Shown: piece by piece, positions 3,823-42,378 of the stretch
How positions within the stretch are numbered: the first letter of the stretch is position 1
How the letters are laid out: each line of letters starts with the position of its first letter
Virus record (IMG/VR): IMGVR_UViG_3300020045_009164
Location: 1-64,000 of that record
From: a virus
Taxonomy: Duplodnaviria > Caudoviricetes
Length of the DNA stretch: 64,000 bases
Direction: 5' to 3' (one strand)
Program-made: the position numbers and the translations under genes
Notes under the pieces: generated by a model
Told to the model about the DNA's origin: nothing
What the model saw: the letters and a program-made list of their open reading frames with translations, nothing else
The model's database searches: none

Positions 3823-6513
3823 TTAACCCCACTTGGCCCTAAACACCTTCCAAACTCCATCCGATTTCTTAATCGGACCGATCTTTGAGTTCTTGTCCAG
3901 GTCAGCAAAGAAGTCCCCCTTCTTCCAATCCCCGTAGCCTCCTGTGACACAAAACTCTTGAAACCTTTTCCACATATCAGCCCTGATAATATAATCTCTG
4001 ACACTGCCAGTAACGACAACATTTTCGTCAAGAAAGAGAGCTACTGGATCTGTACTTAACTCCCATCTCTTGTACAACTCCAAACTCAAACTGTCTTCCA
4101 ATCCATACTGAAAATACAGCTTGACTCCCTCAATAGCCCAAGCCAAGACCCCAGGAAGTTCGTCAGCAATGATCATATCGGCCAAACCAACAATCTCCTC
4201 CATGGAGGCATGTTTGGTGAACTGTACCATTGAGTGGCCAAACCTTCGCTCAGTCTCCGGGCCTACTGGATGTAGAGAGAAGTTGTCATTCATAGAAATG
4301 ACAAAACTACAAGTGGACTTGAAATTAAAAGGAACACCATAAGCGAATCTAGCATTGATAACTCCACCACCCGTTATCTCTTTCAGTCCGGTTATATCAA
4401 TTTTCTTGGCTCCTCTTCCCGTCCTTACCTCAGAGCTAAAGTTAACCCTGGACTGAGCAATGTGCGCCCTGTAATACTCCTGATTGAGTTGATCTAAAGA
4501 TACGGAGGTGATTCTATTGGAGGGAAGCATGGCCATCATGATGTCACTGATAGTGCCTTTACCAGCTCCACCCATGCCTTTCATCACCATAACCTTTTGG
4601 GCCTTATTCAAATACCCACTTATAGCAAGGCCAAACAGCTGCTGGAAAAGGACCGGGTTCTCAATGTTGGCGAGGATCTTATCAAACAAAGGAGTATTCA
4701 TGCTGAAATCAGGTTTGATGCCCATTTTAAATCGACACATAAGATCCTTATTATACTCAACTTTCTCCACTTTACCATCCTTGATAAGGTAAAATCCATC
4801 AGAGCAAGGGAAGCCAAACGCCTCCTCCCACTGCAAGACATTAGCATCGCTGTCATTAACAACCATTCTTACCAGTGAGCTGTAATGCCCATCTGTTTTA
4901 CAAAGCTTCACGTGGTTATAATGACTTCGCAGTTTCTTTCTGATGACTCTTTGGGTGTGTTCTTGCCAGATGGTGCCGCCCTCCCAAGCGTAGACACTGC
5001 CGCCAAAAGTCTTGCAGTCACCAGTGTTACGGACGTAATCCTCCATAACGTCCCCGTGGCTAGCTTCTGGGCTTACTGCGACTCCATACATGCACTCAGG
5101 GTCAATCGGCTCACCAGTGGCATCCTCAGGCTTTTTATCAACAACCCTGGTCTTAATGTCCTTTCTGACTGCCACTACGCTTATGTCCAGCTGCTTAGCA
5201 GCTGACTTGGCAATCTTTTCTAACTGGATGTCATTCATATCAGAATTGGCTACGTGAATTCCAATCCAATCTTCAATTACATCCTGTTCAGAGTTTTCAA
5301 GCCAGTCGTTAAGATCCTCATAAGTCCATTTCAGTGCATATTTAACTCCACCATGATTAAAACTATGCAGGAAGGGCTCAGTGTCCTGGCCCATGATCTT
5401 GCCGACATTTCTGTCTGGCTCACAATTGACAGGGTCGTTGAATTTATCTTTGCCAATCCATTTGTCAGGGTTGGACAGGATCTCGCTGACTCTTACTTCT
5501 GTGCCGTCTGTGCGTCTTAAAACTACACTAGATAACAGTATGGAATTACTGAGGCTTTGTGCTGATTTTTTAGCCTCTTTTTCTGACATTCCAGACTCAG
5601 TGTTCTTTTCAACTCGCTCTAAAATCCATGCACTTTTAGCAGCTACTACATCAGGAGCTGTTTCTTTGCTCCGCTTGTATATTCCCCACTCTTTCTCAAA
5701 ATCAACCGTCAGTTCTCGTAAAATACCAACGGCCAGTTCAGCATCTATGACGCCTCCAGGTTGGTAATTGCAAGTCCTGTCAATATGCCTGTAATATTCA
5801 GCGGGGCCTTCCACTAAGGCATCTGAAGAGTATACTACTCTCTCTGGACTACCGACAGCTGGGTCGATAAGACTTTCAGATGTAATGCTTCCGGCTTTGC
5901 TAACTTTGTAACCTCTGTAGTCAGGGGAGGTCAGCCAGCAGAATTTGTGGATAAGCTTAATAAGCTCACTGGAGCATTTCTTGACGGGGAGGAAGACGTG
6001 GAGGCCGTTGCCTCGTTTTCCGTTGATTTCGACACTGGAGCTAGTTGAAGGTCTGAGCCAGCGGCAAATACGCGCTCTCTGGCCGCTAGTTTCACCGATC
6101 AGAGCATCATGTAGGATAACATCCAGCTCCTTCAAAAAACGCTGTCTGAGGGCGTCTGGGGCGTCAGAATCGAAATCCAAATAGAGTAAAGATATGTTGC
6201 CAGAGTTACACCAGTTGAAAAATTCAAGAGTCCGGGCTATGGTGCCTTGCTCTCGCTTGGAATTTTCCGCTGTGGTCAGGTTGAATTCCTCGCCGGTCTT
6301 GCCACAGACCCCTAGAAGTAGGCACTTTTCTGGAGATTTGGCGAGGTTGTCAAGGTATTCTGAGACATTATCAAAGGTGAGTTCGATGTTTTTCGCTATG
6401 CCTGAATATATAGCGGGTGCTGAAATGATATTCACTTCACCATCAGGAGAGATTTGATATTTTTTCGCAATCGTGCCCTGCCGTGAGGTGAGTTCAGTGA
6501 GTCTGATTGTCAT
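3823..6513 (-). CDS. P4/D5-type primase-helicase (SF3 helicase)
   Basis: 896 aa; N-terminal primase-like motifs (YLDFD, GLHVF); Walker A MKGMGGAGKGT; LKEITGG; C-terminal wHTH. Confidence 0.85.
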   Translation of the reverse strand: MTIRLTELTSRQGTIAKKYQISPDGEVNIISAPAIYSGIAKNIELTFDNVSEYLDNLAKSPEKCLLLGVCGKTGEEFNLTTAENSKREQGTIARTLEFFNWCNSGNISLLYLDFDSDAPDALRQRFLKELDVILHDALIGETSGQRARICRWLRPSTSSSVEINGKRGNGLHVFLPVKKCSSELIKLIHKFCWLTSPDYRGYKVSKAGSITSESLIDPAVGSPERVVYSSDALVEGPAEYYRHIDRTCNYQPGGVIDAELAVGILRELTVDFEKEWGIYKRSKETAPDVVAAKSAWILERVEKNTESGMSEKEAKKSAQSLSNSILLSSVVLRRTDGTEVRVSEILSNPDKWIGKDKFNDPVNCEPDRNVGKIMGQDTEPFLHSFNHGGVKYALKWTYEDLNDWLENSEQDVIEDWIGIHVANSDMNDIQLEKIAKSAAKQLDISVVAVRKDIKTRVVDKKPEDATGEPIDPECMYGVAVSPEASHGDVMEDYVRNTGDCKTFGGSVYAWEGGTIWQEHTQRVIRKKLRSHYNHVKLCKTDGHYSSLVRMVVNDSDANVLQWEEAFGFPCSDGFYLIKDGKVEKVEYNKDLMCRFKMGIKPDFSMNTPLFDKILANIENPVLFQQLFGLAISGYLNKAQKVMVMKGMGGAGKGTISDIMMAMLPSNRITSVSLDQLNQEYYRAHIAQSRVNFSSEVRTGRGAKKIDITGLKEITGGGVINARFAYGVPFNFKSTCSFVISMNDNFSLHPVGPETERRFGHSMVQFTKHASMEEIVGLADMIIADELPGVLAWAIEGVKLYFQYGLEDSLSLELYKRWELSTDPVALFLDENVVVTGSVRDYIIRADMWKRFQEFCVTGGYGDWKKGDFFADLDKNSKIGPIKKSDGVWKVFRAKWG

Positions 6514-33110: not shown

Positions 33111-33520
33111 AGAACAGCGGAAAGTATCTCGAGGAAGCAATTGAGTCTGAGTTGAAAAAGAATACAGACACAAGTCGTCATTGGAGGCGACTTCATGATG
33201 GCAGGGCTGCTAAAAATTACATCCCAGCCCAACCAGCGGACTTCTTCCTATGTATTGCTGGGGGGGCAGTTTATTTGGAAAGCAAATCTCAGAAGGGTAA
33301 GACCAGGAGACTCAACAAGTTTTCCCAGCTCCCTGTGATGCAGAGGTGGAGTTCAGCTGGTGTAAAAGGGGCAGTGGTTGTCCACTTCCACGAATTGGAG
33401 GAGTTGTTTATGGTGGATGTGGATTGGTTTGATCCAAGTAAACCTTCGTGGGTTTTGAGTGAGGAGTTTATTATTGAGAGCCTTGAGGATGGGTTGGAGA
33501 AATTGGGGTGGAGGTCTTAA
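33107..33520 (+). CDS. Holliday junction resolvase (RecU/Hjc-like PD-(D/E)xK)
   Basis: GKYLE...PADF...YLESKS. Confidence 0.75.
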   Translation: MKNSGKYLEEAIESELKKNTDTSRHWRRLHDGRAAKNYIPAQPADFFLCIAGGAVYLESKSQKGKTRRLNKFSQLPVMQRWSSAGVKGAVVVHFHELEELFMVDVDWFDPSKPSWVLSEEFIIESLEDGLEKLGWRS

Positions 33521-34503
33521 TGAAATACCTTGTTCTGTCAGATTTACATTTTGCTCCAGATCGTAGAGCTGGCTGTAGTCAGGCCAGTAGGCTCTCCCTT
33601 GAAGACTACTTGTTTGATAGACTTAATCACATTCTCCAGACAGTTGAACATGACAAGGTTATTATTGCTGGAGATATATTTGATAAATTCTCAGTATCTG
33701 AGAAGACGCTTCTGAACACCTACCTAGCCCTTAGGGGTGAGAAGGCTATAATACTGCGAGGGAATCATGACGCCAACTCTGCTGTTAGAGTTGGCGAGAT
33801 ATCTAGCTTAGAACTCCTTGGAGCTTTGCTGCCAGAAACCCACTTGGTATTCAACGAACCGGAGACAGTCGATGGTATGCACTTCATCCCACACTGCTTT
33901 GACCAGACTCAACTTAATCAGTATGTAGATGAAATACCTGACAATGTTGTATGTTTCTTACATTGTAATTTTGACAACTCATTCACTGAACACGCCGACC
34001 ACAGCCTTAACATCACCAGTCAGCAATACCAGAAGCTGAAAGAGAGCAATGTTTTCTTGATACTTGGACACGAACACCAAGCCAGAGATCTGGAAAACCT
34101 ATACATCCTGGGGTGTACTTACCCCACCTCCATCAGCGATTGTCTTGGTGGATCAAAGCGCTGTCTCCTCTACGACTCAGAGGCCAAAACCTTTGAATCA
34201 ATAGAAACCTTCAACAAGGAAGCAGAGTACATTGAGCTACATTGGTCAGACACCAGACTTACTGATCACAAGTTTGTGAGGGTAGTAGGTGACTGTTCCG
34301 TAGTTGAATATCCCCAGATAGTTCGTTCTATTGCTCAGTTGCGGAAGACCAGTGATGCCTTCATCATAGCGAATGCTGTCAAGGTCCAGACGCCCGAGAG
34401 GGAGGAGATTGAAAAGCAGGAAGTCACAGGATTTAACATACTGTCACTTCTACTGGAGAATGTGGATGAGGAGTTCAGGGGGGAGGTAAAATTGTGTATA
34501 TAG
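33520..34503 (+). CDS. SbcD/Mre11-like metallophosphoesterase nuclease
   Basis: SDLH, AGDIFD, GNHD and GHEH; adjacent to an SMC-like ATPase. Confidence 0.88.
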   Translation: MKYLVLSDLHFAPDRRAGCSQASRLSLEDYLFDRLNHILQTVEHDKVIIAGDIFDKFSVSEKTLLNTYLALRGEKAIILRGNHDANSAVRVGEISSLELLGALLPETHLVFNEPETVDGMHFIPHCFDQTQLNQYVDEIPDNVVCFLHCNFDNSFTEHADHSLNITSQQYQKLKESNVFLILGHEHQARDLENLYILGCTYPTSISDCLGGSKRCLLYDSEAKTFESIETFNKEAEYIELHWSDTRLTDHKFVRVVGDCSVVEYPQIVRSIAQLRKTSDAFIIANAVKVQTPEREEIEKQEVTGFNILSLLLENVDEEFRGEVKLCI

Positions 34504-36608
34504 AATCAATAGAGATTTTCAATTTCGGGGCTATCAAATACAAGAAGCTGGATTTCGTGGATGGCCTCGTGGTGGTCAGAGGAGCGAATGAACAGGGTAA
34601 ATCTACTACAGTTATCCAGGCACCTTTGTACGCCTTCTTCGGTTCAAGTACATTGGACTCAAGCCTCGACTTCGTAGTCCATCACAACGAGCCAGTCAAC
34701 AGCCTCAAGGTAATAGTCAAGTACGGACCTTACACAGTTAGTCGTACAAAATCAAGTGCCTCAGTTATTGGGCCAGGAGTAGCTATATCTGGTCAGAAAG
34801 AGGTGAGTGACTTCTTCTACTCTCTCTTTGGAATATTCAAAGGCACAGAAACTATGGTGCTTGTGTCAGAACAAGGAGACACTGCGGGCGTGATCAAGCG
34901 CAAAAACGGGGAGATAACTTCATTTATTGAGGATATAGCTGGCTTCGACCAAATAGAGATGCTTCTTGACAGAATCAAAGAGACCTACCCAACTGGAAAT
35001 GACAAGGCTCTTAAAGCCCAGCTGGAAAATCTCGAAGCTGAAAAGACTCGGTATCAGCAAGAAGAATTACCGGATATGGCCTTACTCACATTGGAGAAAG
35101 AGCTGGCCGCTGATAAGGCTCTCATACATGAGGCCAACGTCAGTGCTAAGAGAGCAGCCATAAAGATCCTGGAAGAGGAACTCAAGAAGGTTGAGTTGTC
35201 CAACCAGAGTATCGAAGCTCTGGCCAAAGCTGTCAGTACCAAGAAGTCAGAGATCAAGTATTCAACTGCGGCGTTGGTATTAGCTGAGATGGAGCTAGAG
35301 AGGGTCCCCACGTTTGAAATGGGCGAGGTTGAATATGCTAGCAACTTCATAGACGACTTCCCTGCCCTGGAAAAAAGATACAAAGCCTACCAATGGGTGA
35401 GTAGCCTGAAGCCAGCTGAGGCTGTCTGGGATGAGTCTGAGGAGGCATTGGTCAAAGTTATAACAGGGTTAAACAAAAACATAGTCAAGGCCAGGGAACT
35501 TATTGCCAGTACTGAAGGAGAAATAAAAACCCTAAAGAAGGGTATCCAGGTGGATACAGTTTGTACCAAGTGTGGTACAGACGTGAAGGATAAGGTTGAG
35601 GCAATTAATAAGGAGATTGATGAAGATATAGGTTTCTTGGAGAGTAAGATAAGAAGTTACAGGCTAGCTCTACAGGGAGATGAGGAGGAGAAGTTGGTCC
35701 TTGATCAGATCCTTGCTGCTCACCAAAAGCTGGAAAGAGAGTTTAAACTCCATGAAGAGTATGTGTCTGCTGATTGTGAACTCATACCTCACACCTACTC
35801 GCTAGACGGTGACATACCAACAGAGCCTAGCTTACAGGAATTGAAAGACTCTAGGCAGCTTGTGTTTGATCACCAGAAGTCGGTATTCAACTCTGCTACT
35901 TGTAAAGCAGTCATCAAGGAGAAGACTTCTGCTATAGACAGACTTAAGGCAGAGCTAGCAGAAAAAGAACTGGAGCTAAAAGACGCTGGAGAGGTTCAGG
36001 ACCTGACCGAAAAGCGAAAGGAGATATTTGATGAGGAGATAAAATTAAAGAAGTTGTCACAAGCCCAGACAGAACTCAACACCCAACTCCTGAACAAAGA
36101 GAAAGAGATTGTGGCTGCTGAGGCTAAGATATCCACCAATAAGAAGAATATTGAACGTGTTGTAGCTTCAATAATTCAAACTGAGTCGGACCTTAGAGTT
36201 GAGGATCGTAATGGCAAGATCGTAAAATCGGTCAGAGACGCGAAGCCGAAGGTATTAAATCAGATATGGGGAAGAGTTCTCGACTACACCCAACAGGCTT
36301 TCTCTGAGATGAGGGGAGTTGAGTCAAAGGTTGAAAGGTCTGAGAAAGGATTTCTAACGGACGGCAGACCTGTGTCCCGTTTGTCTGGAAGCGCCAAGTC
36401 TATACTCGGTGTATCTTTGAGAGCAGCAGTCAGAGACATCTTTGCTCCTACATGTGGCTTCATGATATATGATGAACCCTTCGGGGACATGGACGAGGAG
36501 AGGACTGCTTCAGCACTAGCAGCAATACAAACTATAAGAGGGCAGAAGTTTATTGTGACTCATGAGAGTCAGTCGGAGATGGCCGCAGATCAGGTAGTAG
36601 AAATCTAG
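34494..36608 (+). CDS. SbcC/Rad50-like SMC ATPase
   Basis: Walker A GANEQGKST; coiled coils with central CTKC hook; LSGS signature; IYDEP Walker B. Confidence 0.9.
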   Translation: MYIESIEIFNFGAIKYKKLDFVDGLVVVRGANEQGKSTTVIQAPLYAFFGSSTLDSSLDFVVHHNEPVNSLKVIVKYGPYTVSRTKSSASVIGPGVAISGQKEVSDFFYSLFGIFKGTETMVLVSEQGDTAGVIKRKNGEITSFIEDIAGFDQIEMLLDRIKETYPTGNDKALKAQLENLEAEKTRYQQEELPDMALLTLEKELAADKALIHEANVSAKRAAIKILEEELKKVELSNQSIEALAKAVSTKKSEIKYSTAALVLAEMELERVPTFEMGEVEYASNFIDDFPALEKRYKAYQWVSSLKPAEAVWDESEEALVKVITGLNKNIVKARELIASTEGEIKTLKKGIQVDTVCTKCGTDVKDKVEAINKEIDEDIGFLESKIRSYRLALQGDEEEKLVLDQILAAHQKLEREFKLHEEYVSADCELIPHTYSLDGDIPTEPSLQELKDSRQLVFDHQKSVFNSATCKAVIKEKTSAIDRLKAELAEKELELKDAGEVQDLTEKRKEIFDEEIKLKKLSQAQTELNTQLLNKEKEIVAAEAKISTNKKNIERVVASIIQTESDLRVEDRNGKIVKSVRDAKPKVLNQIWGRVLDYTQQAFSEMRGVESKVERSEKGFLTDGRPVSRLSGSAKSILGVSLRAAVRDIFAPTCGFMIYDEPFGDMDEERTASALAAIQTIRGQKFIVTHESQSEMAADQVVEI

Positions 36609-36620
36609 AGGGAGAAAGAA

Positions 36621-36830
36621 ATGAAAACACAAGAGGACGACTCAAAGGTACTTGCTTCCCTACGCTACGTACTGGACATGACAGATTGTAGTGATTGGCA
36701 CCTAATTCATAATACTGCTAGAAAGTATGTGCAAGATGGAATACTCAGTAAAAGTGGTGAGATAATGTATAGTGAAATTGTGGACAATATGTTGAAGGTC
36801 AGGTTTCCTGATCAGACAGCGGAGACTTAA
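36621..36830 (+). CDS. hypothetical protein
   Basis: GGGAG RBS. Confidence 0.7.
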   Translation: MKTQEDDSKVLASLRYVLDMTDCSDWHLIHNTARKYVQDGILSKSGEIMYSEIVDNMLKVRFPDQTAET

Positions 36831-36840
36831 TACAAAAGTA

Positions 36841-36869
36841 TTGACAAAGTATTAATCTTAATGTATATG
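36841..36869 (+). promoter_or_regulatory. sigma70-type promoter
   Basis: TTGACA-17-TATATG. Confidence 0.7.
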
Positions 36870-36874
36870 TTTTC

Positions 36875-36980
36875 CTATCTCTGTGGCAAAAGACTCTCAT
36901 CGGGCTGCGGTGTAGTAAGTCCTGCAAACCTGGAGCGGATAGTCCGTTCCAGGTTTTCTTTTATGTAAGAGCAGAGATGG
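36875..36980 (+). ncRNA. candidate ~106 nt structured RNA upstream of RHH-tnpB
   Basis: Closing stem CTATCTCTG/CAGAGATGG; internal hairpins including the 14 bp AAACCTGGAGCGGA/TCCGTTCCAGGTTT; starts 5 nt after the -10 box. Confidence 0.5.
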
Positions 36981-37022
36981 ATTAACAAAGTAGTTGTAAT
37001 AAGAGTGCAATAGGAGTATGAT

Positions 37023-37193
37023 ATGCGCATGAGAAAAAAGAATACTTATTTTTCAATTATACAGTTGAAGCTACTGGAGGGGTTAGCGGAGGTCACTGGT
37101 ATCACAGTTGCTGAACACATACGCAGGGCTGTTGACCTGTATTTAAAGGAACAGAATGTATCTATCTCACAAAATAGAACTAAGACCTACTAA
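37023..37193 (+). CDS. ribbon-helix-helix DNA-binding protein, 56 aa
   Basis: MRMRKKNTYFSIIQLKLLEGLAEVTGITVAEHIRRAVDLYL...; overlaps the tnpB start by 38 nt. Confidence 0.8.
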   Translation: MRMRKKNTYFSIIQLKLLEGLAEVTGITVAEHIRRAVDLYLKEQNVSISQNRTKTY

Positions 37194-38253
37194 AGAACAA
37201 GAAGAATTTTTGAAGAAATCTTGTGGAGTAAAAAGATTTGTTTGGAACGCTTGCTTGAATGAATGGAATAAAGCCTACAAACTAGGCTTCAAGCCAGATG
37301 AAGATTATATCAGGTTCTACTTAAAGGTTTTGCGAGATAAACACCCGTGGATAGGTGAAGTTTCAAGCAAAGTTTACTATTCTTGTATAGCAGATCTAAA
37401 GGGTGCTTTTGTAAAGATGTTTAAGAAGCAAGCAAAGTACCCAAGGTTTAAGAAGAAAGGTCAAAGAGATTCTTTTACTATAAGCCAAAAAGAAGTGTTC
37501 AATGTTAACGGGAGGAGGCTGAAACTTCCTCGCTTAAATAAGACAATACTTATGAGGGAGTGTACACGGTTTAAGGGTGAGGTAAGATCATGTACGGTGG
37601 CTAGCATTGGTGGGAAGTGGTTTGTGTCAGTGTTGGTTAAGTTGAGTAGTAACCCATTCCTGAATAAATTTCCTGGCGAAAACCAAGTTGGGATTGATTT
37701 AGGTATAAAAGAAATGGCCGTCCTGTCAAATGGGGAGGTTTTTAAAGCTAACCAACCACTGAAAAATGAGTTAAAAAGACTGGCCAAACTACAGAGGTCT
37801 TTGGCTAAGAAAGAGAAAGGGAGTAACAGATGGGAGAGTAATAAGAAAAAGATTTCTAAGTTGTATAGGCGAGTGTCTAATAAGAGGTCTGCTGTCATCA
37901 ATGAATTTACAGACTACGTGACAAAGACCTTCAATAGGATTGTGATTGAGGATCTTAATATTGCTGGTATGATTAAGAATCATAATTTGTCCAGAGCATT
38001 GAGCGATGTGTCTTTATCAGAAATAAGAAGACAATTTTATTACAAGTCTGTTGCTAGACATGGTGAGTTGGTAATAGCCAATAGATTTTTTCCAAGCTCT
38101 AAAATATGTAGCAAGTGCGGCAGTATTGATAAAGATTTAACTCTAAATGATAGAGTTTATAAGTGCAGTTGTGGTTTAGTGATGGATCGTGACCTCAACG
38201 CTGCTATAAACCTGTTAAACTACAGTCCTGGACAGATTCAAGCCGGACTCTAA
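37156..38253 (+). CDS. tnpB: TnpB RNA-guided endonuclease (IS607/IS605-type), RuvC triad intact
   Basis: HKIELRPT N-terminus; GIDLG, VIEDL and DRDLNAA; CSKC/CSC zinc finger; no tnpA nearby. Confidence 0.92.
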   Translation: MYLSHKIELRPTKEQEEFLKKSCGVKRFVWNACLNEWNKAYKLGFKPDEDYIRFYLKVLRDKHPWIGEVSSKVYYSCIADLKGAFVKMFKKQAKYPRFKKKGQRDSFTISQKEVFNVNGRRLKLPRLNKTILMRECTRFKGEVRSCTVASIGGKWFVSVLVKLSSNPFLNKFPGENQVGIDLGIKEMAVLSNGEVFKANQPLKNELKRLAKLQRSLAKKEKGSNRWESNKKKISKLYRRVSNKRSAVINEFTDYVTKTFNRIVIEDLNIAGMIKNHNLSRALSDVSLSEIRRQFYYKSVARHGELVIANRFFPSSKICSKCGSIDKDLTLNDRVYKCSCGLVMDRDLNAAINLLNYSPGQIQAGL

Positions 38254-38356
38254 ACTTGCACAGAAGAGTAGACAGGTTGCTGTTTATGTTGACGCTGTGA
38301 ATAATGACCTAAGTTTAGGAAAATTTAATGAATCAGATGAAATCCTGTAAGCCCAC
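38224..38356 (+). ncRNA. TnpB omega-RNA (scaffold plus inferred guide)
   Basis: Overlaps the tnpB 3' end; stems AGTCC(T)GG/CCGGACT, CACAG/CTGTG enclosing AGACAG/CTGTTT, and CCTAA/TTAGG. The scaffold-guide boundary near 38336 is inferred. Confidence 0.6.
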
Positions 38357-38420
38357 CACCATGCTTATGTAAATAATGGTATTTGATACTAAACAAAATT
38401 TTAACTGGAGGAGAAAGAAA

Positions 38421-39758
38421 GTGAAACAAGTCTTGGATAGTATAAACCAGATAGCAGCAGTAGGTAGTACCAAAGCCAAGTCAGCGATCATCAAGCAGCA
38501 CTTGCCAGGAAATGAGTTGTTCCAGAAGGTAGTCAAGTATGCTCTGGATCAGAACAAGTCTTTCAATGTGACTGAGTTGGTCACAGGCAAACCCATTACA
38601 CAAGTTTATGTGGGGGAGATATTCAAAAAGTTGGATGACTTAGACTCCAAAAGAGGAGCCACAGATAAAGACATTCAAGAGTTGTCCAATCTAGCAGCCT
38701 CATTTGATGGGGGTTATGAAATAGTCACTAAGATAATACAGAAAGATCTCAAGTGTGGGTGTGGAGCCAAGGCTTTCAATGACGTAATGCCTGGACTGGT
38801 CTTTGAAGTTCCCTACCAGCGGTTCTCCAGCTTTAAGGCAATTGATAAAATAGATTTTGAGAGTGACACTGTAATTGCTCAGATAAAATATGACGGAACC
38901 TTCGCATACCTCATGCCAGATGGTTCATTCTTGTCTCGCAACGGCAGTAGCTACTCTCTCAATGGCGCCATAGAAAGATCTGAAGAATGGATCTCCGGCC
39001 TTGGTGATTATCTTATCTGGATGGGCGAGCTTCTAGTCCTTGGGCCTGATGGTAAGTTCCTCCCGAGGAAAACTGGGAATGGAATCATCAACAAGTTCAT
39101 TTCAGGTGAAGGTGATGGGGCCAACAGAGATAAGGTGAGGTACATCACCTGGGGGTGTATCACTGTCGAGGATTTCAACAGAGGCTATTCTAGTACCACA
39201 TATTTGGAGATGTTGGACACAATTCTGCCATTTCATCAGCATATTAAAGGAAGTAAGATCCAATTCTCCAAATCAGAATTTGTTAAAACTAAGGAAGAAG
39301 CCCTTGCCTTCTATAAGCGATGTAGGGAGCGGAAAGAAGAAGGAGCAATGGTCAAGGTAATCAACAAGCTCAAGTGGAAAGATGAGTCTTCAGGTAGCAA
39401 GTTTGGAGTGAAGTTGAAGCCTGTAGCTGAGGCAGAGTTCGTGATTGTTGATGCCTACCACGGGGACAAGAAAGGCAAGTATGCTTCAGCCTTAGGTGGG
39501 CTGGTTGTTAAGACCCAAGATGACAGGATACTCACCAAGATTGGCGGTGGCTTCTCAGACGAGGAGCGGTTCCTTGGAGTGGATTGGTGGAAGTCTCAGG
39601 TGGGCAGAATCATCACTGCTGAGTTCACTGGAATCACCACTGACAAATCATCCAGAGAAACCTTCTGCCTGGAACATTCAAGATTCTCAGAACTCAGGCA
39701 CGATAAAACTGAGGCTGATTCCTATAACTATTGCTTAGAGGCTGTGAACAATGCTTAG
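38421..39758 (+). CDS. ATP-dependent DNA ligase
   Basis: QIKYDG (KxDG), GELLV, EGAMVK, VKLKP and an OB-fold C-terminus; GTG start with GGAGG RBS. Confidence 0.9.
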   Translation: MKQVLDSINQIAAVGSTKAKSAIIKQHLPGNELFQKVVKYALDQNKSFNVTELVTGKPITQVYVGEIFKKLDDLDSKRGATDKDIQELSNLAASFDGGYEIVTKIIQKDLKCGCGAKAFNDVMPGLVFEVPYQRFSSFKAIDKIDFESDTVIAQIKYDGTFAYLMPDGSFLSRNGSSYSLNGAIERSEEWISGLGDYLIWMGELLVLGPDGKFLPRKTGNGIINKFISGEGDGANRDKVRYITWGCITVEDFNRGYSSTTYLEMLDTILPFHQHIKGSKIQFSKSEFVKTKEEALAFYKRCRERKEEGAMVKVINKLKWKDESSGSKFGVKLKPVAEAEFVIVDAYHGDKKGKYASALGGLVVKTQDDRILTKIGGGFSDEERFLGVDWWKSQVGRIITAEFTGITTDKSSRETFCLEHSRFSELRHDKTEADSYNYCLEAVNNA

Positions 39759-39936
39759 AGTTGAAATCACAGTTGATATTTTAAAGAGAACGCCCATGGC
39801 TATCCTGGTTGATGACGGTGACGTACAGGAATGGATACCTCTCAGCCTTATTGAAGAGGAGCCTGAGAAAGGTGATGTGTTGGGTGTGGAGATCTCTATT
39901 CCTGAATGGCTGGCTATTGATAAGGGGTTTGTATGA
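39751..39936 (+). CDS. conserved small phage protein (WIPLS...IPEWLA)
   Basis: Recognisable motif. Confidence 0.8.
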   Translation: MLRVEITVDILKRTPMAILVDDGDVQEWIPLSLIEEEPEKGDVLGVEISIPEWLAIDKGFV

Positions 39937-40154
39937 GAATCAATATAGGAGAGGTGCTGTGTCCTCAATGTACTTTCATGAAGCAAACAGGAGTGACGCC
40001 AGAGATGATGGGTAGACCATCAAAGCCTATAATGTACTGCCAAGCTCCTTATCCAGTTTACTGTAGACCTGCCATCGGTTTGAGTGAGCATGGCTTCCCC
40101 ATAATTGGAACTGTAATAGGATCAGGCTGTGACCTGTTTGAGGCAAAGAAATGA
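39933..40154 (+). CDS. Cys-containing hypothetical protein
   Basis: ATGA overlaps. Confidence 0.7.
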   Translation: MRINIGEVLCPQCTFMKQTGVTPEMMGRPSKPIMYCQAPYPVYCRPAIGLSEHGFPIIGTVIGSGCDLFEAKK

Positions 40155-40318
40155 AAGACTTACTAGCTAAAATAACTGAAGTGAAAGATCTAGCTTCCAA
40201 CATCGGGAGGACAGCCAAGATACCACCAAAGGACCATGAAAGGATCTTGGAGGTCTATGGATGTTTAGTGTTGGCCGAGAAGAGATTGAAGAGTTTGATG
40301 GAGGTGGAGGTTGACTGA
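40151..40318 (+). CDS. hypothetical protein (55 aa)
   Basis: ATGA overlap; fills the gap. Confidence 0.65.
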   Translation: MKDLLAKITEVKDLASNIGRTAKIPPKDHERILEVYGCLVLAEKRLKSLMEVEVD

Positions 40319-40625
40319 CTCAAAAGATAAGAAGTATGATGAAGGAAAACCAATGGTGGGCCTGATGAAGAAGGACTTCTCAAGGGCGTTGTTAGCAGTA
40401 GCTGAAGTAACTACCTATGGAGTGAAGAAGTATAACCAACCAGGATCTTGGAGACTGGTTGAGAACGGCTTGGATAGGTATGAAGATGCTCTTGGAAGGC
40501 ATGACTTGAATATGTCGTCTGAAGAATATGACCAAGAGTCTGGTCTTCTCCATGCTGCACACAGAGCATGGAATGCTCTTGCTACCCTTGAGCTTCTACT
40601 AACTCCCTCCTCTTCATCCAAGTAG
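40311..40625 (+). CDS. dATP/dGTP diphosphohydrolase-like protein (DUF5664 pattern)
   Basis: KYDEGKP...TYGVKKY...W...RH...DQESGLLHAAHRAWNAL. Confidence 0.8.
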   Translation: MTDSKDKKYDEGKPMVGLMKKDFSRALLAVAEVTTYGVKKYNQPGSWRLVENGLDRYEDALGRHDLNMSSEEYDQESGLLHAAHRAWNALATLELLLTPSSSSK

Positions 40626-42378
40626 ATTGATTAAAAATATCAGGGTATTTCTCTTTCATAAACTGCCAAAGAGGGATTCCCTGATATTTCCTACAAAGAA
40701 AATCTAGGCTCACCTCACTCAACATGTAGTCTCCATCATGGACTTCATGGAGAAGGAAGATGGCTCTCATCTCACCGTTCGCCTGTGGTCCCCGGTACTC
40801 CTCATCATGTAGGTAGCAGCTTGACGCCACTAAACCTCTGATAGTCTTACCAGTGTTGAGGAACCTACTTCCTACGAGGTAGGTCTGCTGATGCCCTTGT
40901 ACAAATGTAAAACTCAAATTTTTCAACCTAGTGTCAATTGAATATCCGCTGTAAGGTCTACCCGAAAGGGGGTTACAAAAGTAGTGGCTGTAGCTAACCC
41001 CATCTATAGTAACTATCTCTAGGAAAGGATGGACTTTCCAACCGAAGTCCTCATAGCCAAGATCCTTGATAGACATGAAGCCTTCAAGTGACGGATCAGA
41101 TTCTACAGCTCTAGTTATCCTACAGTTACCAGAAAAAATTGGTTTGTTGTCTCTTCTGATCATAAGAGTTTCGTTATCAACAACAGCACACCAAACTTTA
41201 CCAGTGTAATGTATTCTTTTCTTAAGAAATTTTTCAACTCTGCATTTAGTGGCCTTGGTTATATTCACCCTAAAGTGAGTGGGCCTGTATTCAGATATCG
41301 TAGCCCTGTATCCCTTAGTAATGCACAGTGCCTGTAGACTTTCGCATATTTCCTTCCTACCATAAAATACTCTTGAGTCAGTGGCTCTAGTTGGTATAGA
41401 CCCATCACAAAATATTAGAGTTTCTAAAAACACTTCAAACTGTTTTTGGTTCAGATTAAAAGCCCAGGGTGGCATTAGTTTGTTGTTATCTGGACACCAG
41501 TTAGGTCTTGTCATGTAGAATTCAAAAGCAACTTTAGCTCTGGCCTTTAGTTTTTTCCCACAAATATGAGTTATGTTCCTATCTCTTTCCTTTTCGTCAA
41601 AATCTACACCAGCTTCTAATATTATATTTCTAATGTGGTTTGCCTTCTCTCCAGATTGGTAAAAAGTTAGCCTTCTACTTAGTCCGTGGTGGGAGTCAGT
41701 CAAAGCTACAGCAGAAAATCTTATCTGTTCAAGGGACAGAGACACCCCATTACCAGAGGGAGCGCTAACAAACTGGTCACAAGCTGAAGGGCAGTCTTTG
41801 GCCATCCCTTCATGCATTTTAGTCCCTTCATTGTTAGTCCAGATAACTCTGTGATTAGGAGTCACACACATACTGACTGTTCTTGAGTGATGTATTAGCA
41901 TCTCTCCATTGTAGTCATTACATATAATCTCTTTTACTGGTTGCCACTCCCCACTCTGATTCTTTCTTATGGTGTATACCAATTCCCCTACCTGAAGTTC
42001 AGAGAATAGTTTCCATCCAGACTCAGTTAGTATCTCTGTTGCTGTATCATAACACTCATGGTTGCCTAACACTAGGCGCATCTCAGGCTTATACAGCTTA
42101 TGTTTCTGCCCTTCCATCTTGGAGTTGTAATTCTTGAGTGGCCTTAACAGCAACTCCATCCCCTCTTTAGCAGCCTCTATATCTTTCTTATACCGCTTTC
42201 CTTCGGCTCTGAGCTTTCCTTTGTCGTAGCTAGACAGGCTTTCCATATCAGCGAAGTCACCCAGATCAACGATAACATCTGGCTTCTTCTCAACTATGTA
42301 CTGGCCTATCCATGAGAGGTGGTCTTTTGGGGAGGTGGGTGTTACTTGAGTGTCAGGTATGACTAAATGTTTCCTCAT
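40582..42378 (-). CDS. calcineurin-like metallophosphoesterase precursor containing an intein
   Basis: PDTQ, GDFAD, GNHE, SHY and GHQQ motifs; about 288 aa after removing the intein. Confidence 0.88.
   Translation of the reverse strand: MRKHLVIPDTQVTPTSPKDHLSWIGQYIVEKKPDVIVDLGDFADMESLSSYDKGKLRAEGKRYKKDIEAAKEGMELLLRPLKNYNSKMEGQKHKLYKPEMRLVLGNHECYDTATEILTESGWKLFSELQVGELVYTIRKNQSGEWQPVKEIICNDYNGEMLIHHSRTVSMCVTPNHRVIWTNNEGTKMHEGMAKDCPSACDQFVSAPSGNGVSLSLEQIRFSAVALTDSHHGLSRRLTFYQSGEKANHIRNIILEAGVDFDEKERDRNITHICGKKLKARAKVAFEFYMTRPNWCPDNNKLMPPWAFNLNQKQFEVFLETLIFCDGSIPTRATDSRVFYGRKEICESLQALCITKGYRATISEYRPTHFRVNITKATKCRVEKFLKKRIHYTGKVWCAVVDNETLMIRRDNKPIFSGNCRITRAVESDPSLEGFMSIKDLGYEDFGWKVHPFLEIVTIDGVSYSHYFCNPLSGRPYSGYSIDTRLKNLSFTFVQGHQQTYLVGSRFLNTGKTIRGLVASSCYLHDEEYRGPQANGEMRAIFLLHEVHDGDYMLSEVSLDFLCRKYQGIPLWQFMKEKYPDIFNQSTWMKRRELVEAQG
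41125..42054 (-). mobile_element. intein (310 aa) with LAGLIDADG-type endonuclease region
   Basis: Starts CYDTATEILT right after GNHE; block B VTPNHRV; ETLIFCDGS; ends YTGKVWC...IFSGN followed by Cys+1. Confidence 0.9.

Follow-up and report, generated by a model that had tools for sequence, protein, structure and literature searches.

What does an RNA-guided nuclease do in a virulent phage when no transposase accompanies it? The question is raised by an intact cassette of ~1.35 kb that lies within the first 64 kb (hereafter, the window) of a 74.7-kb IMG/VR viral contig, IMGVR_UViG_3300020045_009164, which derives from an uncultured phage and is estimated to be 58% complete. The cassette comprises a small ribbon-helix-helix (RHH) gene, a tnpB gene, and an omega RNA (the guide RNA of TnpB), without a transposase, i.e., it is a transposase-less arc-tnpB-omegaRNA unit of the IS200/IS605 superfamily with the IS1341-like tnpB-only layout, present in a single copy. 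We consider RNA-guided homing, or drive among co-replicating phage genomes, to be its most likely mode of action, with a probability of roughly 0.6. Homing is favored because both the nuclease and the omega RNA appear intact and selected, because the clade is confined to phages and devoid of tnpA, because the mapped junctions are scarless, and because the guide of a sister copy matches an empty allele.

The nuclease gene, tnpB, occupies positions 37156 to 38253 on the plus strand and encodes 365 amino acids, an assignment drawn from Pfam, NCBIfam, solved structures, and a family alignment. Its product scored above the curated thresholds for the Pfam domains HTH_OrfB_IS605 (PF12323), OrfB_IS605 (PF01385), and Cas12f1-like_TNB (PF07282), in that order, and reached 261 bits with the NCBIfam guided_TnpB model NF040570 (cut-off of 100), while the NCBIfam IS200/IS605 model (278 bits) outscored the IS607 model (214 bits). 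Solved TnpB proteins were matched by sequence alone, with E = 1.6e-39 for ISDra2 (8bf8) and E = 7e-51 for 8iaz. An earlier, sequence-only reading of this DNA had claimed a complete D-E-D triad and a zinc finger, and both were borne out: The RuvC residues are D181 (GIDLG), E265 (IEDLN), and D346 (DRDLN), the zinc finger (CxxC...CxC) is formed by C318, C321, C337, and C339, and, in an alignment of 29 relatives, D181, E265, D346, C318, and C321 were invariant and C337 nearly so. The window TnpB is a full-length, intact, predicted nuclease that is close to solved, active TnpBs.

The DNA past the tnpB stop codon was conserved at the nucleotide level even though the proteins of the related elements were only 55 to 65% identical, and this conservation ended abruptly. 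We aligned ten related loci from the RuvC-III codons to this break point (alignment A5) and, using RNAalifold, pair counts, and a covariance model (R1) built from A5, delimited the 3′ part of an omega-RNA scaffold at 38185 to 38336 (plus strand), which shares the final 69 nucleotides (nt) of tnpB. RNAalifold yielded three helices (38236-38240 with 38329-38333, 38259-38263 with 38295-38299, and 38268-38275 with 38280-38287), with compensatory changes in 15 of 19 pairs, and a further covarying hairpin joins 38308-38312 with 38315-38319. When the structure was fixed at 18 pairs, 97.1% of the cells were paired, compared to 29 to 44% when the partners were slid by one to three columns; 15 of the 18 pairs had changed on both sides among the ten loci, and the observed covariation score was reached by none of 500 shuffles. 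The omega-RNA-like 3′ stems seen in the earlier reading were thereby upheld by covariation, and we take the 3′ region to be an omega-RNA scaffold whose structure is under selection. The covariance model scored 141.8 bits at 38185-38337, gave weaker matches 3′ of more distant tnpB genes, and found no second omega-RNA copy in the window or in the rest of the 74.7-kb contig. With one tnpB and one omega RNA in the entire contig, the claim that the cassette has no second copy stood as well. No Rfam family matched in 36500-38800 at E ≤ 1.

Both ends of a sister element could be mapped because the same element (91% identical in tnpB nucleotides and 92.5% in amino acids) stands in different surroundings in two related phages, at loci that we denote L007 and L172. 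Its left end, AAAAAGTTAATAG..., lies 56 to 62 nt upstream of the RHH start, and comparison of L007 with L172 places its right end at ...TTTTTATGAGTCTG. The L172-carrying phage, on a contig of 79.7 kb with a single omega RNA (L189), also holds an element-free allele of the L007 site. DNA comparison of these alleles showed that the L007 element is inserted exactly after a start codon, such that ...GAAATGAAATG is followed by the element and then by TACTTAGATACC, with no target duplication at the ATG/TAC junction apart from a 2-nt TG ambiguity. The flanks were 88.7% identical, and across the guide region L007 and the empty allele did not differ.

The final nine bases of the element (ATG AGT CTG) supply a new start to the gene that is displaced in L007: The downstream gene, of 143 amino acids, starts MSLYLDT, while its close homologs (six were fetched) start MY(L/F)DT and are mostly 141 amino acids long. 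At L172, joining the flanks restored an unbroken open reading frame (ORF) of 75 codons, a small gene that the element splits in frame, with a stop provided by the left end after seven codons and a restart provided by the right end. A third locus, L009, displayed the same restart pattern, as residue 2 of the nearest homolog of its downstream protein aligned with residue 4 of the L009 protein. This supply of a start codon by the right end was found in L007, L009, L010, and L172. Between L007 and L172, the ratio of nonsynonymous to synonymous substitution rates (dN/dS) was 0.10 for tnpB and 0.30 for the RHH gene. Because of the low value for tnpB, we conclude that the sister-element nuclease has, as judged by its codons, been kept under purifying selection without a transposase.

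In the window, homology between related elements breaks off at 38336/38337, and the flanks beyond are unrelated between loci. Because this point is homologous to the mapped L007 junction (...CTG/TAC), the scaffold is predicted to end between 38336 and 38337 and the guide to start with ATGAAATCCTGTAAGC, so that the guide start near 38337 proposed earlier is supported by the conservation break and the mapped sister junction alike. The right flank that would template the guide, ATGAAATCCTGTAAGCCCAC, spans 38337 to 38356 on the plus strand, where a guide length of 16 to 20 nt is assumed from ISDra2; this 20-mer is unique in the window. The right end of the cassette also opens a 14-codon ORF (38328 to 38372, plus strand), read from the sequence and from the sister cases L007, L009, L010, and L172, whose stop lies 3 nt ahead of ATG 38376; here, ATG 38328 may do no more than couple translation towards the ligase.

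The left end of the window cassette could only be bracketed because this phage has no close relative. The cassette begins upstream of 37023, since its promoter lies at 36994-37022, and its left end falls within 36831-36993, the likeliest place being right behind a terminator-like hairpin (about 36966-36980). This hairpin of 14 bp followed by a T-run (36926 to 36965, plus strand), found by a terminator scan, by folding, and as inverted repeat I1, lies outside the cassette and downstream of sbcCD and a 69-codon ORF (RNA fold of −34.5 kcal/mol, z = −4.07). It closes a unit at 36831-36965, immediately 5′ of the cassette. This unit opens with a sequence resembling a promoter, TTGACA-17-TATATG (36841-36869), which overlaps a tandem AAAGTATT repeat (11-nt spacing; 36835-36853), and some 90 nt free of ORFs follow. 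The unit may encode a small RNA or be the terminator of the sbcCD operon. We tried the promoter-hairpin stretch (36841-36965) as a part of the cassette and rejected it, as the sister elements have only 56 to 62 nt between left end and RHH start; the unit was not conserved in them.

The small gene that precedes tnpB (37023 to 37193, plus strand, 56 amino acids) is of the Arc type, scoring above the Pfam cut-offs for RHH_3 (E = 4e-5) as well as RHH_1 (E = 1.5e-4), and its ORF overlaps that of tnpB by 38 nt. Its product shares 61% identity with the RHH of L007, and since the latter sits within the mapped element ends, the window RHH probably lies inside its element as well. A promoter scan placed the cassette promoter at 36994 to 37022 on the plus strand (TTGTAA at 36994-36999, a 17-nt spacer, and TATGAT at 37017-37022), and TTGACA-17-TATAxT stood directly ahead of the small ORF also in L007, L172 (as TTGGCA), L009, L010, L173, and L180. 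The −10 box ends one base ahead of ATG 37023, and a second ATG, 37029, lies 7 nt past it. Because the −10 box abuts the first ATG, the real start is probably ATG 37029, with transcription starting nearby and yielding a leaderless mRNA. The promoter spacer region (36995-37016) holds a tandem 11-nt repeat, TGTAATAAGAG/TGCAATAGGAG, read from the sequence, that is a candidate Arc operator.

Arc (RHH) proteins of IS605-family elements bind and repress their own element promoter, as tested also for elements with arc and tnpB only (10.64898/2026.09.24.754181). By analogy, the window RHH would be an Arc-type repressor of the kind known in these elements, a likeness seen in fold and layout. The association of RHH genes with IS605-family elements was reportedly noted earlier, by Zedaveinyte et al. 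in 2024 and Altae-Tran et al. in 2023. Within the clade, the small ORF encodes an RHH protein in the window, L007/L172, L010, L173, and L180, a 41-amino acid zinc ribbon in L009, and a 66-amino acid MerR-type helix-turn-helix (HTH) protein in the nearest isolated Vibrio phages, and it is absent in L147, L175, and L178. Because the small ORF is thus exchangeable or absent, the data suggest a role in promoter control, and not that of a transposase surrogate or a specific antidote. The notion that the RHH gene stands in the place of TnpA was therefore abandoned. The MerR-type ORF (L002 3841-4041; L003 3838-4038) and the zinc-ribbon ORF (L009 2541-2666) each overlap the tnpB start; the kind of small ORF varies while its position and overlap are constant.

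The closest proteins to the window TnpB among 5.8 billion were 49 to 65% identical to it, and we examined the neighborhoods of ten loci in this range. All fetched relatives stood among phage genes, with tnpA nearby in none: L172 is on an IMG/VR contig, L147 adjoins a portal gene on a phage-like contig of a metagenome-assembled genome (MAG), L180 lies near a small terminase gene, L173 behind a phage DNA methyltransferase gene, L178 behind a primase gene, and L175 to L177 between two giant structural genes. In 185,579 prokaryote species genomes (one for each species), the best TnpB matches were at most 44% identical, except for the phage-like MAG contig L147, and the best matches among isolated phages were those of Vibrio phages, at 43%. 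Judging from these surroundings, the clade of the window cassette is phage-borne and tnpA-less. Scans of metagenomes and genomes with the TnpB alignment returned relatives of mostly 31 to 44% identity, which were useless for mapping ends, IMG/VR yielded only one distant relative for the ligase and one for TnpB, and a megablast search with 35500-40500 found nothing among 50,697 phage records. Within the 74.7-kb contig, we counted one tnpB and found neither a Y1 TnpA (PF01797) nor a serine recombinase (PF00239), for both of which control genomes were positive; Y1 TnpA (PF01797) was likewise absent from the 79.7-kb contig of the sister phage.

The placement of the cassette between the SbcC region and the ligase gene, as described earlier, was confirmed by the ORF map and Pfam. 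To its left, sbcD, sbcC, and an ORF of 69 amino acids span 33508 to 36830, and two overlapping plus-strand ORFs (RHH and tnpB) fill the space between the end of that ORF (36830) and the gene for an ATP-dependent DNA ligase (38421 to 39758, plus strand, Pfam). The ancestral ligase start is GTG 38421, behind GGAGGAG, since the relatives show that start: P0122 to P0125 are 436 to 446 amino acids long, and the ligase of L192 begins MREVLG... at the equivalent position. The content of the sbcC-ligase slot differed in every relative found, with a 71-amino acid ORF only in L005 (ligase 58% identical; 1564-1793), ORFs of 218 and 112 amino acids in L181 (61%; 3994-5000), and an IS3-type HTH_Tnp_1 (OrfA-like) ORF along with others in the relatives with ligases of 69 to 70% identity; the slot was also viewed at L192 1-498 and on the contig of P0122, and the HTH_Tnp_1 ORF was seen in the slot of two relatives. 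Several kinds of mobile gene appear to use this slot, and, because the relatives hold other content between sbcC and the ligase gene, the window cassette is best described as an insertion in a variable slot. A BLAST search with the window flanks (36831-37022 and 38338-38420) against all fetched loci gave nothing informative. The adjacency to SbcCD and the ligase does not by itself show a functional link.

These features suggest the following course of events. From the promoter at 36994-37022, the Arc-type RHH gene (probably leaderless) would be transcribed together with tnpB, which overlaps it, and the RHH protein would most likely bind the repeats in the promoter and keep expression low. The 3′ end of the transcript would fold into the omega-RNA scaffold (up to 38336), with the next 16 to 20 nt serving as the guide. 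In an occupied genome, the target-adjacent motif (TAM) in the left flank and the target in the right flank would lie 1.35 kb apart, so that no self-cutting is expected. In a co-infecting related phage that lacks the cassette, TAM and target would be adjacent and TnpB could cut, whereupon phage recombination would repair the break from the occupied genome and copy the cassette in, akin to the homing of a homing endonuclease gene. Equally, the cassette might act as a gene drive within the pool of genome copies that a phage produces as it replicates. TnpB homing is said to have been shown experimentally by Meers in 2023. TnpA-independent drive by TnpB was shown in plasmids (Mears et al. 2025, PMC11870625), and a 2026 review gives homing into co-infecting phages, under the name “non-restorative transposon homing,” as a theoretical case only (PMC13565253); our literature search found no paper demonstrating TnpB homing between co-infecting phages.

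Several observations weigh against homing. The sister element stands at two sites, a distribution that homing by itself does not account for and that calls for another route. No empty allele of the window locus was found, the nearest relatives having ligases of only 58 to 70% identity, and the guide 16-mer gave six matches in IMG/VR, none of which extended beyond a seed of 16 to 18 nt, as expected by chance. On the left, the 5 nt next to the element are AAATG in one mapped sister copy and AGACT in the other, unexpected if the TAM were strict, and these two junctions yielded no TAM consensus. Nor do L007 and L189 differ by the element alone: 2.4 kb of L189 (genes of 504 and 287 amino acids), between near-identical ribosome-binding regions, is missing from the L007 allele (L007 2592-2811 and 4187-5284 versus L189 386-602 and 3002-4101). 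Finally, with a contig that is 58% complete, it is possible that a transposase or a second copy lies elsewhere in the genome. The proposal of homing between co-infecting phages thus stands as far as the sister-element junctions, the guide match, and selection carry it, and it falls short in that the spread to two sites goes beyond homing and the empty allele of the window locus was not found. At both gene starts in L189, GGAGAAATGAAATG or GGGGAAATGAAATG is found, so the 2.4 kb may have been lost when the element inserted or the break was repaired, by deletion from one look-alike site to the other; alternatively, the two genes may have been acquired afterwards. The right flank of L172 matched only itself in IMG/VR.

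The two-site distribution is also what an ordinary nonautonomous insertion sequence (IS) of the IS1341 type would produce, since it requires transposition-like moves. Such an IS would have been moved from a host chromosome into the phage by a host TnpA acting in trans and would now be stranded, with TnpB serving in retention or not at all and with no homing from phage to phage. Insertions of IS200/IS605 elements are likewise scarless and without target duplication, which fits this explanation equally. The sequence-only reading had named a cognate TnpA and multiple copies, in host or phage, as signs of such an ordinary IS; neither these nor the marks of an autonomous IS200/IS605 or IS607 element (a TnpA in the element, several copies) were found in the 74.7-kb contig, which covers only part of the phage genome. 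What speaks against a stranded IS is that the relatives examined (49 to 65% identity) all stand in phage-like contigs, that the phage-like MAG contig aside no cellular relative in the 185,579 species exceeds 44% identity, that tnpA is absent from the 75-kb and 80-kb phage contigs, that tnpB remained under strong purifying selection after the copies had separated, and that the element ends suit phage gene arrays, with a stop codon on the left and a start codon on the right. We regard this explanation, the main rival of homing, as unlikely, while according it real weight.

The overlap of a small RHH gene with a larger nuclease gene also resembles type II toxin-antitoxin modules, in which case the pair would be a toxin-antitoxin-like or weapon module, possibly retargeted, with TnpB as a toxin or as a nuclease aimed at competitors or the host and the RHH protein as antidote or switch. 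RHH/MazE-TnpB toxin-antitoxin pairs were proposed for an archaeal clade with a rearranged catalytic site (Altae-Tran et al. 2023, PMC10691335). In contrast to that clade, which is immobile, the window TnpB has a canonical triad and a phage carrier, and its sister copies are mobile. Replacement of the small ORF (in L009 and the Vibrio phages) or its absence (in L147, L175, and L178) fits a promoter regulator and not a specific antidote, and Arc homologs repress the element promoter (10.64898/2026.09.24.754181). Retargeting against the host or competitors, which the earlier reading had entertained, found no support, as the guide is ordinary flanking DNA without another target and its IMG/VR matches are those of chance. 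We deem a module of this kind improbable. Exaptations of the TldR type have reportedly been described by Wiegand in 2024, and the cassette, being co-oriented with the ligase gene and immediately upstream of it, would target the ligase upstream region if it were a domesticated, noncutting TldR-like regulator of the neighboring ligase or repair genes. The loss of RuvC residues that marks TldR proteins is, however, not seen here: The triad is intact, and the RuvC residues and the zinc finger are all conserved. In addition, the target in an occupied genome has no adjacent TAM by construction, and the relatives stand at unrelated loci, leaving such a regulator hardly credible.

With RNA-guided homing or drive as the favored explanation, we also put forward a broader and more tentative proposal, to which we give somewhat less than even odds: The phage-specific tnpB-only lineage may consist of RNA-guided homing genes built for “polite” insertion into packed phage operons. 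Its left end would provide a stop codon, its right end (ATG-NNN-CTG, which is also the last guide-RNA helix) would restart the displaced gene, and an exchangeable micro-repressor (RHH, zinc ribbon, or MerR-HTH) would throttle the nuclease; the window copy would then be live and driving through co-infecting relatives by means of phage recombination. The pairing of Arc with TnpB, homing by TnpB, and drive independent of TnpA are already published, and the locus adds no new principle. What it does contribute is the covariation-backed model of the omega RNA and a further clade whose right end supplies a start codon. If the proposed mode of action is true, phage tnpB-only cassettes would be the RNA-guided counterpart of classical phage homing endonuclease genes, which would help to account for the frequent occurrence of TnpB without a transposase, and they would offer compact, naturally self-regulated nuclease-guide pairs, here of 365 amino acids and a scaffold of about 100 to 150 nt. 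As an example, the locus is clean and intact, its guide RNA is supported by structure, and direct tests are feasible.

The carrier is a virulent siphophage. The window encodes a replication and repair module (primase, helicase, family-A DNA polymerase, RNA ligase, SbcD/SbcC-like genes, and the ATP-dependent ligase) and siphovirus tail genes, including a tape measure protein of 2372 amino acids; no tRNA genes were found in it. A 598-amino acid metallophosphoesterase (40582-42378, minus strand) matched PHROG phrog_221 over residues 2-561 even though that profile has only 367 positions, while the Pfam Metallophos match was limited to residues 6-120, a pattern consistent with an intein insertion. 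Among the relatives, the phage-like contig L178 carries, ~400 nt downstream of its clade tnpB, an ORF of 288 amino acids (4078-4944) that matched, below the cut-off, the NCBIfam model of TIGR-Tas RNA-guided endonucleases (E = 2.6e-22), as well as PHROG 4285 “transposase,” and that may be a second RNA-guided nuclease beside TnpB. In L010, an RHH-TnpB cassette lies between the HTH remnant and the RuvC-II-onward remnant of another tnpB (2500-2865 and 4176-4505), in frame with the C-terminal remnant, which looks like one TnpB element targeting another; the interrupted tnpB is short by about 130 codons, and this nested insertion was therefore rejected for end mapping, as it does not provide a clean junction. 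The unit of Vibrio phage IBT_VpB-34 follows the phage ligase gene at a distance of 0.7 kb, and an HNH endonuclease gene precedes that ligase gene.

Among known systems, the cassette resembles TnpB of ISDra2 and the IS200/IS605 elements (Karvelis 2021, PMC8612924; Meers 2023; PDB 8bf8, 8exa, 8h1j) in its domain order, its D-E-D RuvC site, and its zinc finger, as well as in a guide RNA that overlaps the tnpB 3′ end, a right flank that templates the guide, and scarless insertion. It differs from ISDra2 in having no Y1 TnpA, a single copy, and a shorter scaffold (about 100 nt are supported), and its homing would involve two co-infecting genomes instead of sister chromosomes following excision. With the Arc-containing IS605-family elements (Moon, Zedaveinyte, Wiegand, Sternberg, 10.64898/2026.09.24.754181), it shares a small RHH gene beside tnpB and a promoter directly upstream. 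In many of those elements, which reside in bacterial chromosomes, arc and tnpA are oriented divergently from tnpB, whereas in the window arc is co-directional and overlaps tnpB, tnpA is lacking, and the carrier is a virulent phage. The proposed action is akin to the plasmid drive by IS605 TnpB, in which element-free copies of a replicon are cut without TnpA and inheritance in a polyploid pool is biased (PMC11870625). That drive was shown for an autonomous IS on plasmids, while the present case would concern a lytic phage and an element without any TnpA. Lastly, the cassette is comparable to the free-standing homing endonuclease genes of phages such as Seg/Mob of T4 (PMC13565253), a comparison of mode of action and not of descent: Both occupy, co-oriented, a variable slot between conserved genes, and in both copying by break repair is expected upon co-infection. 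As regards presence or absence in related phages, distant relatives of the window phage lack the cassette, and the guide of the sister copy L007 matches the empty allele of L189. Unlike Seg/Mob, where a protein recognizes the site, TnpB would do so through a guide RNA and a TAM, and it would read the presence or absence of the element and not substitutions.

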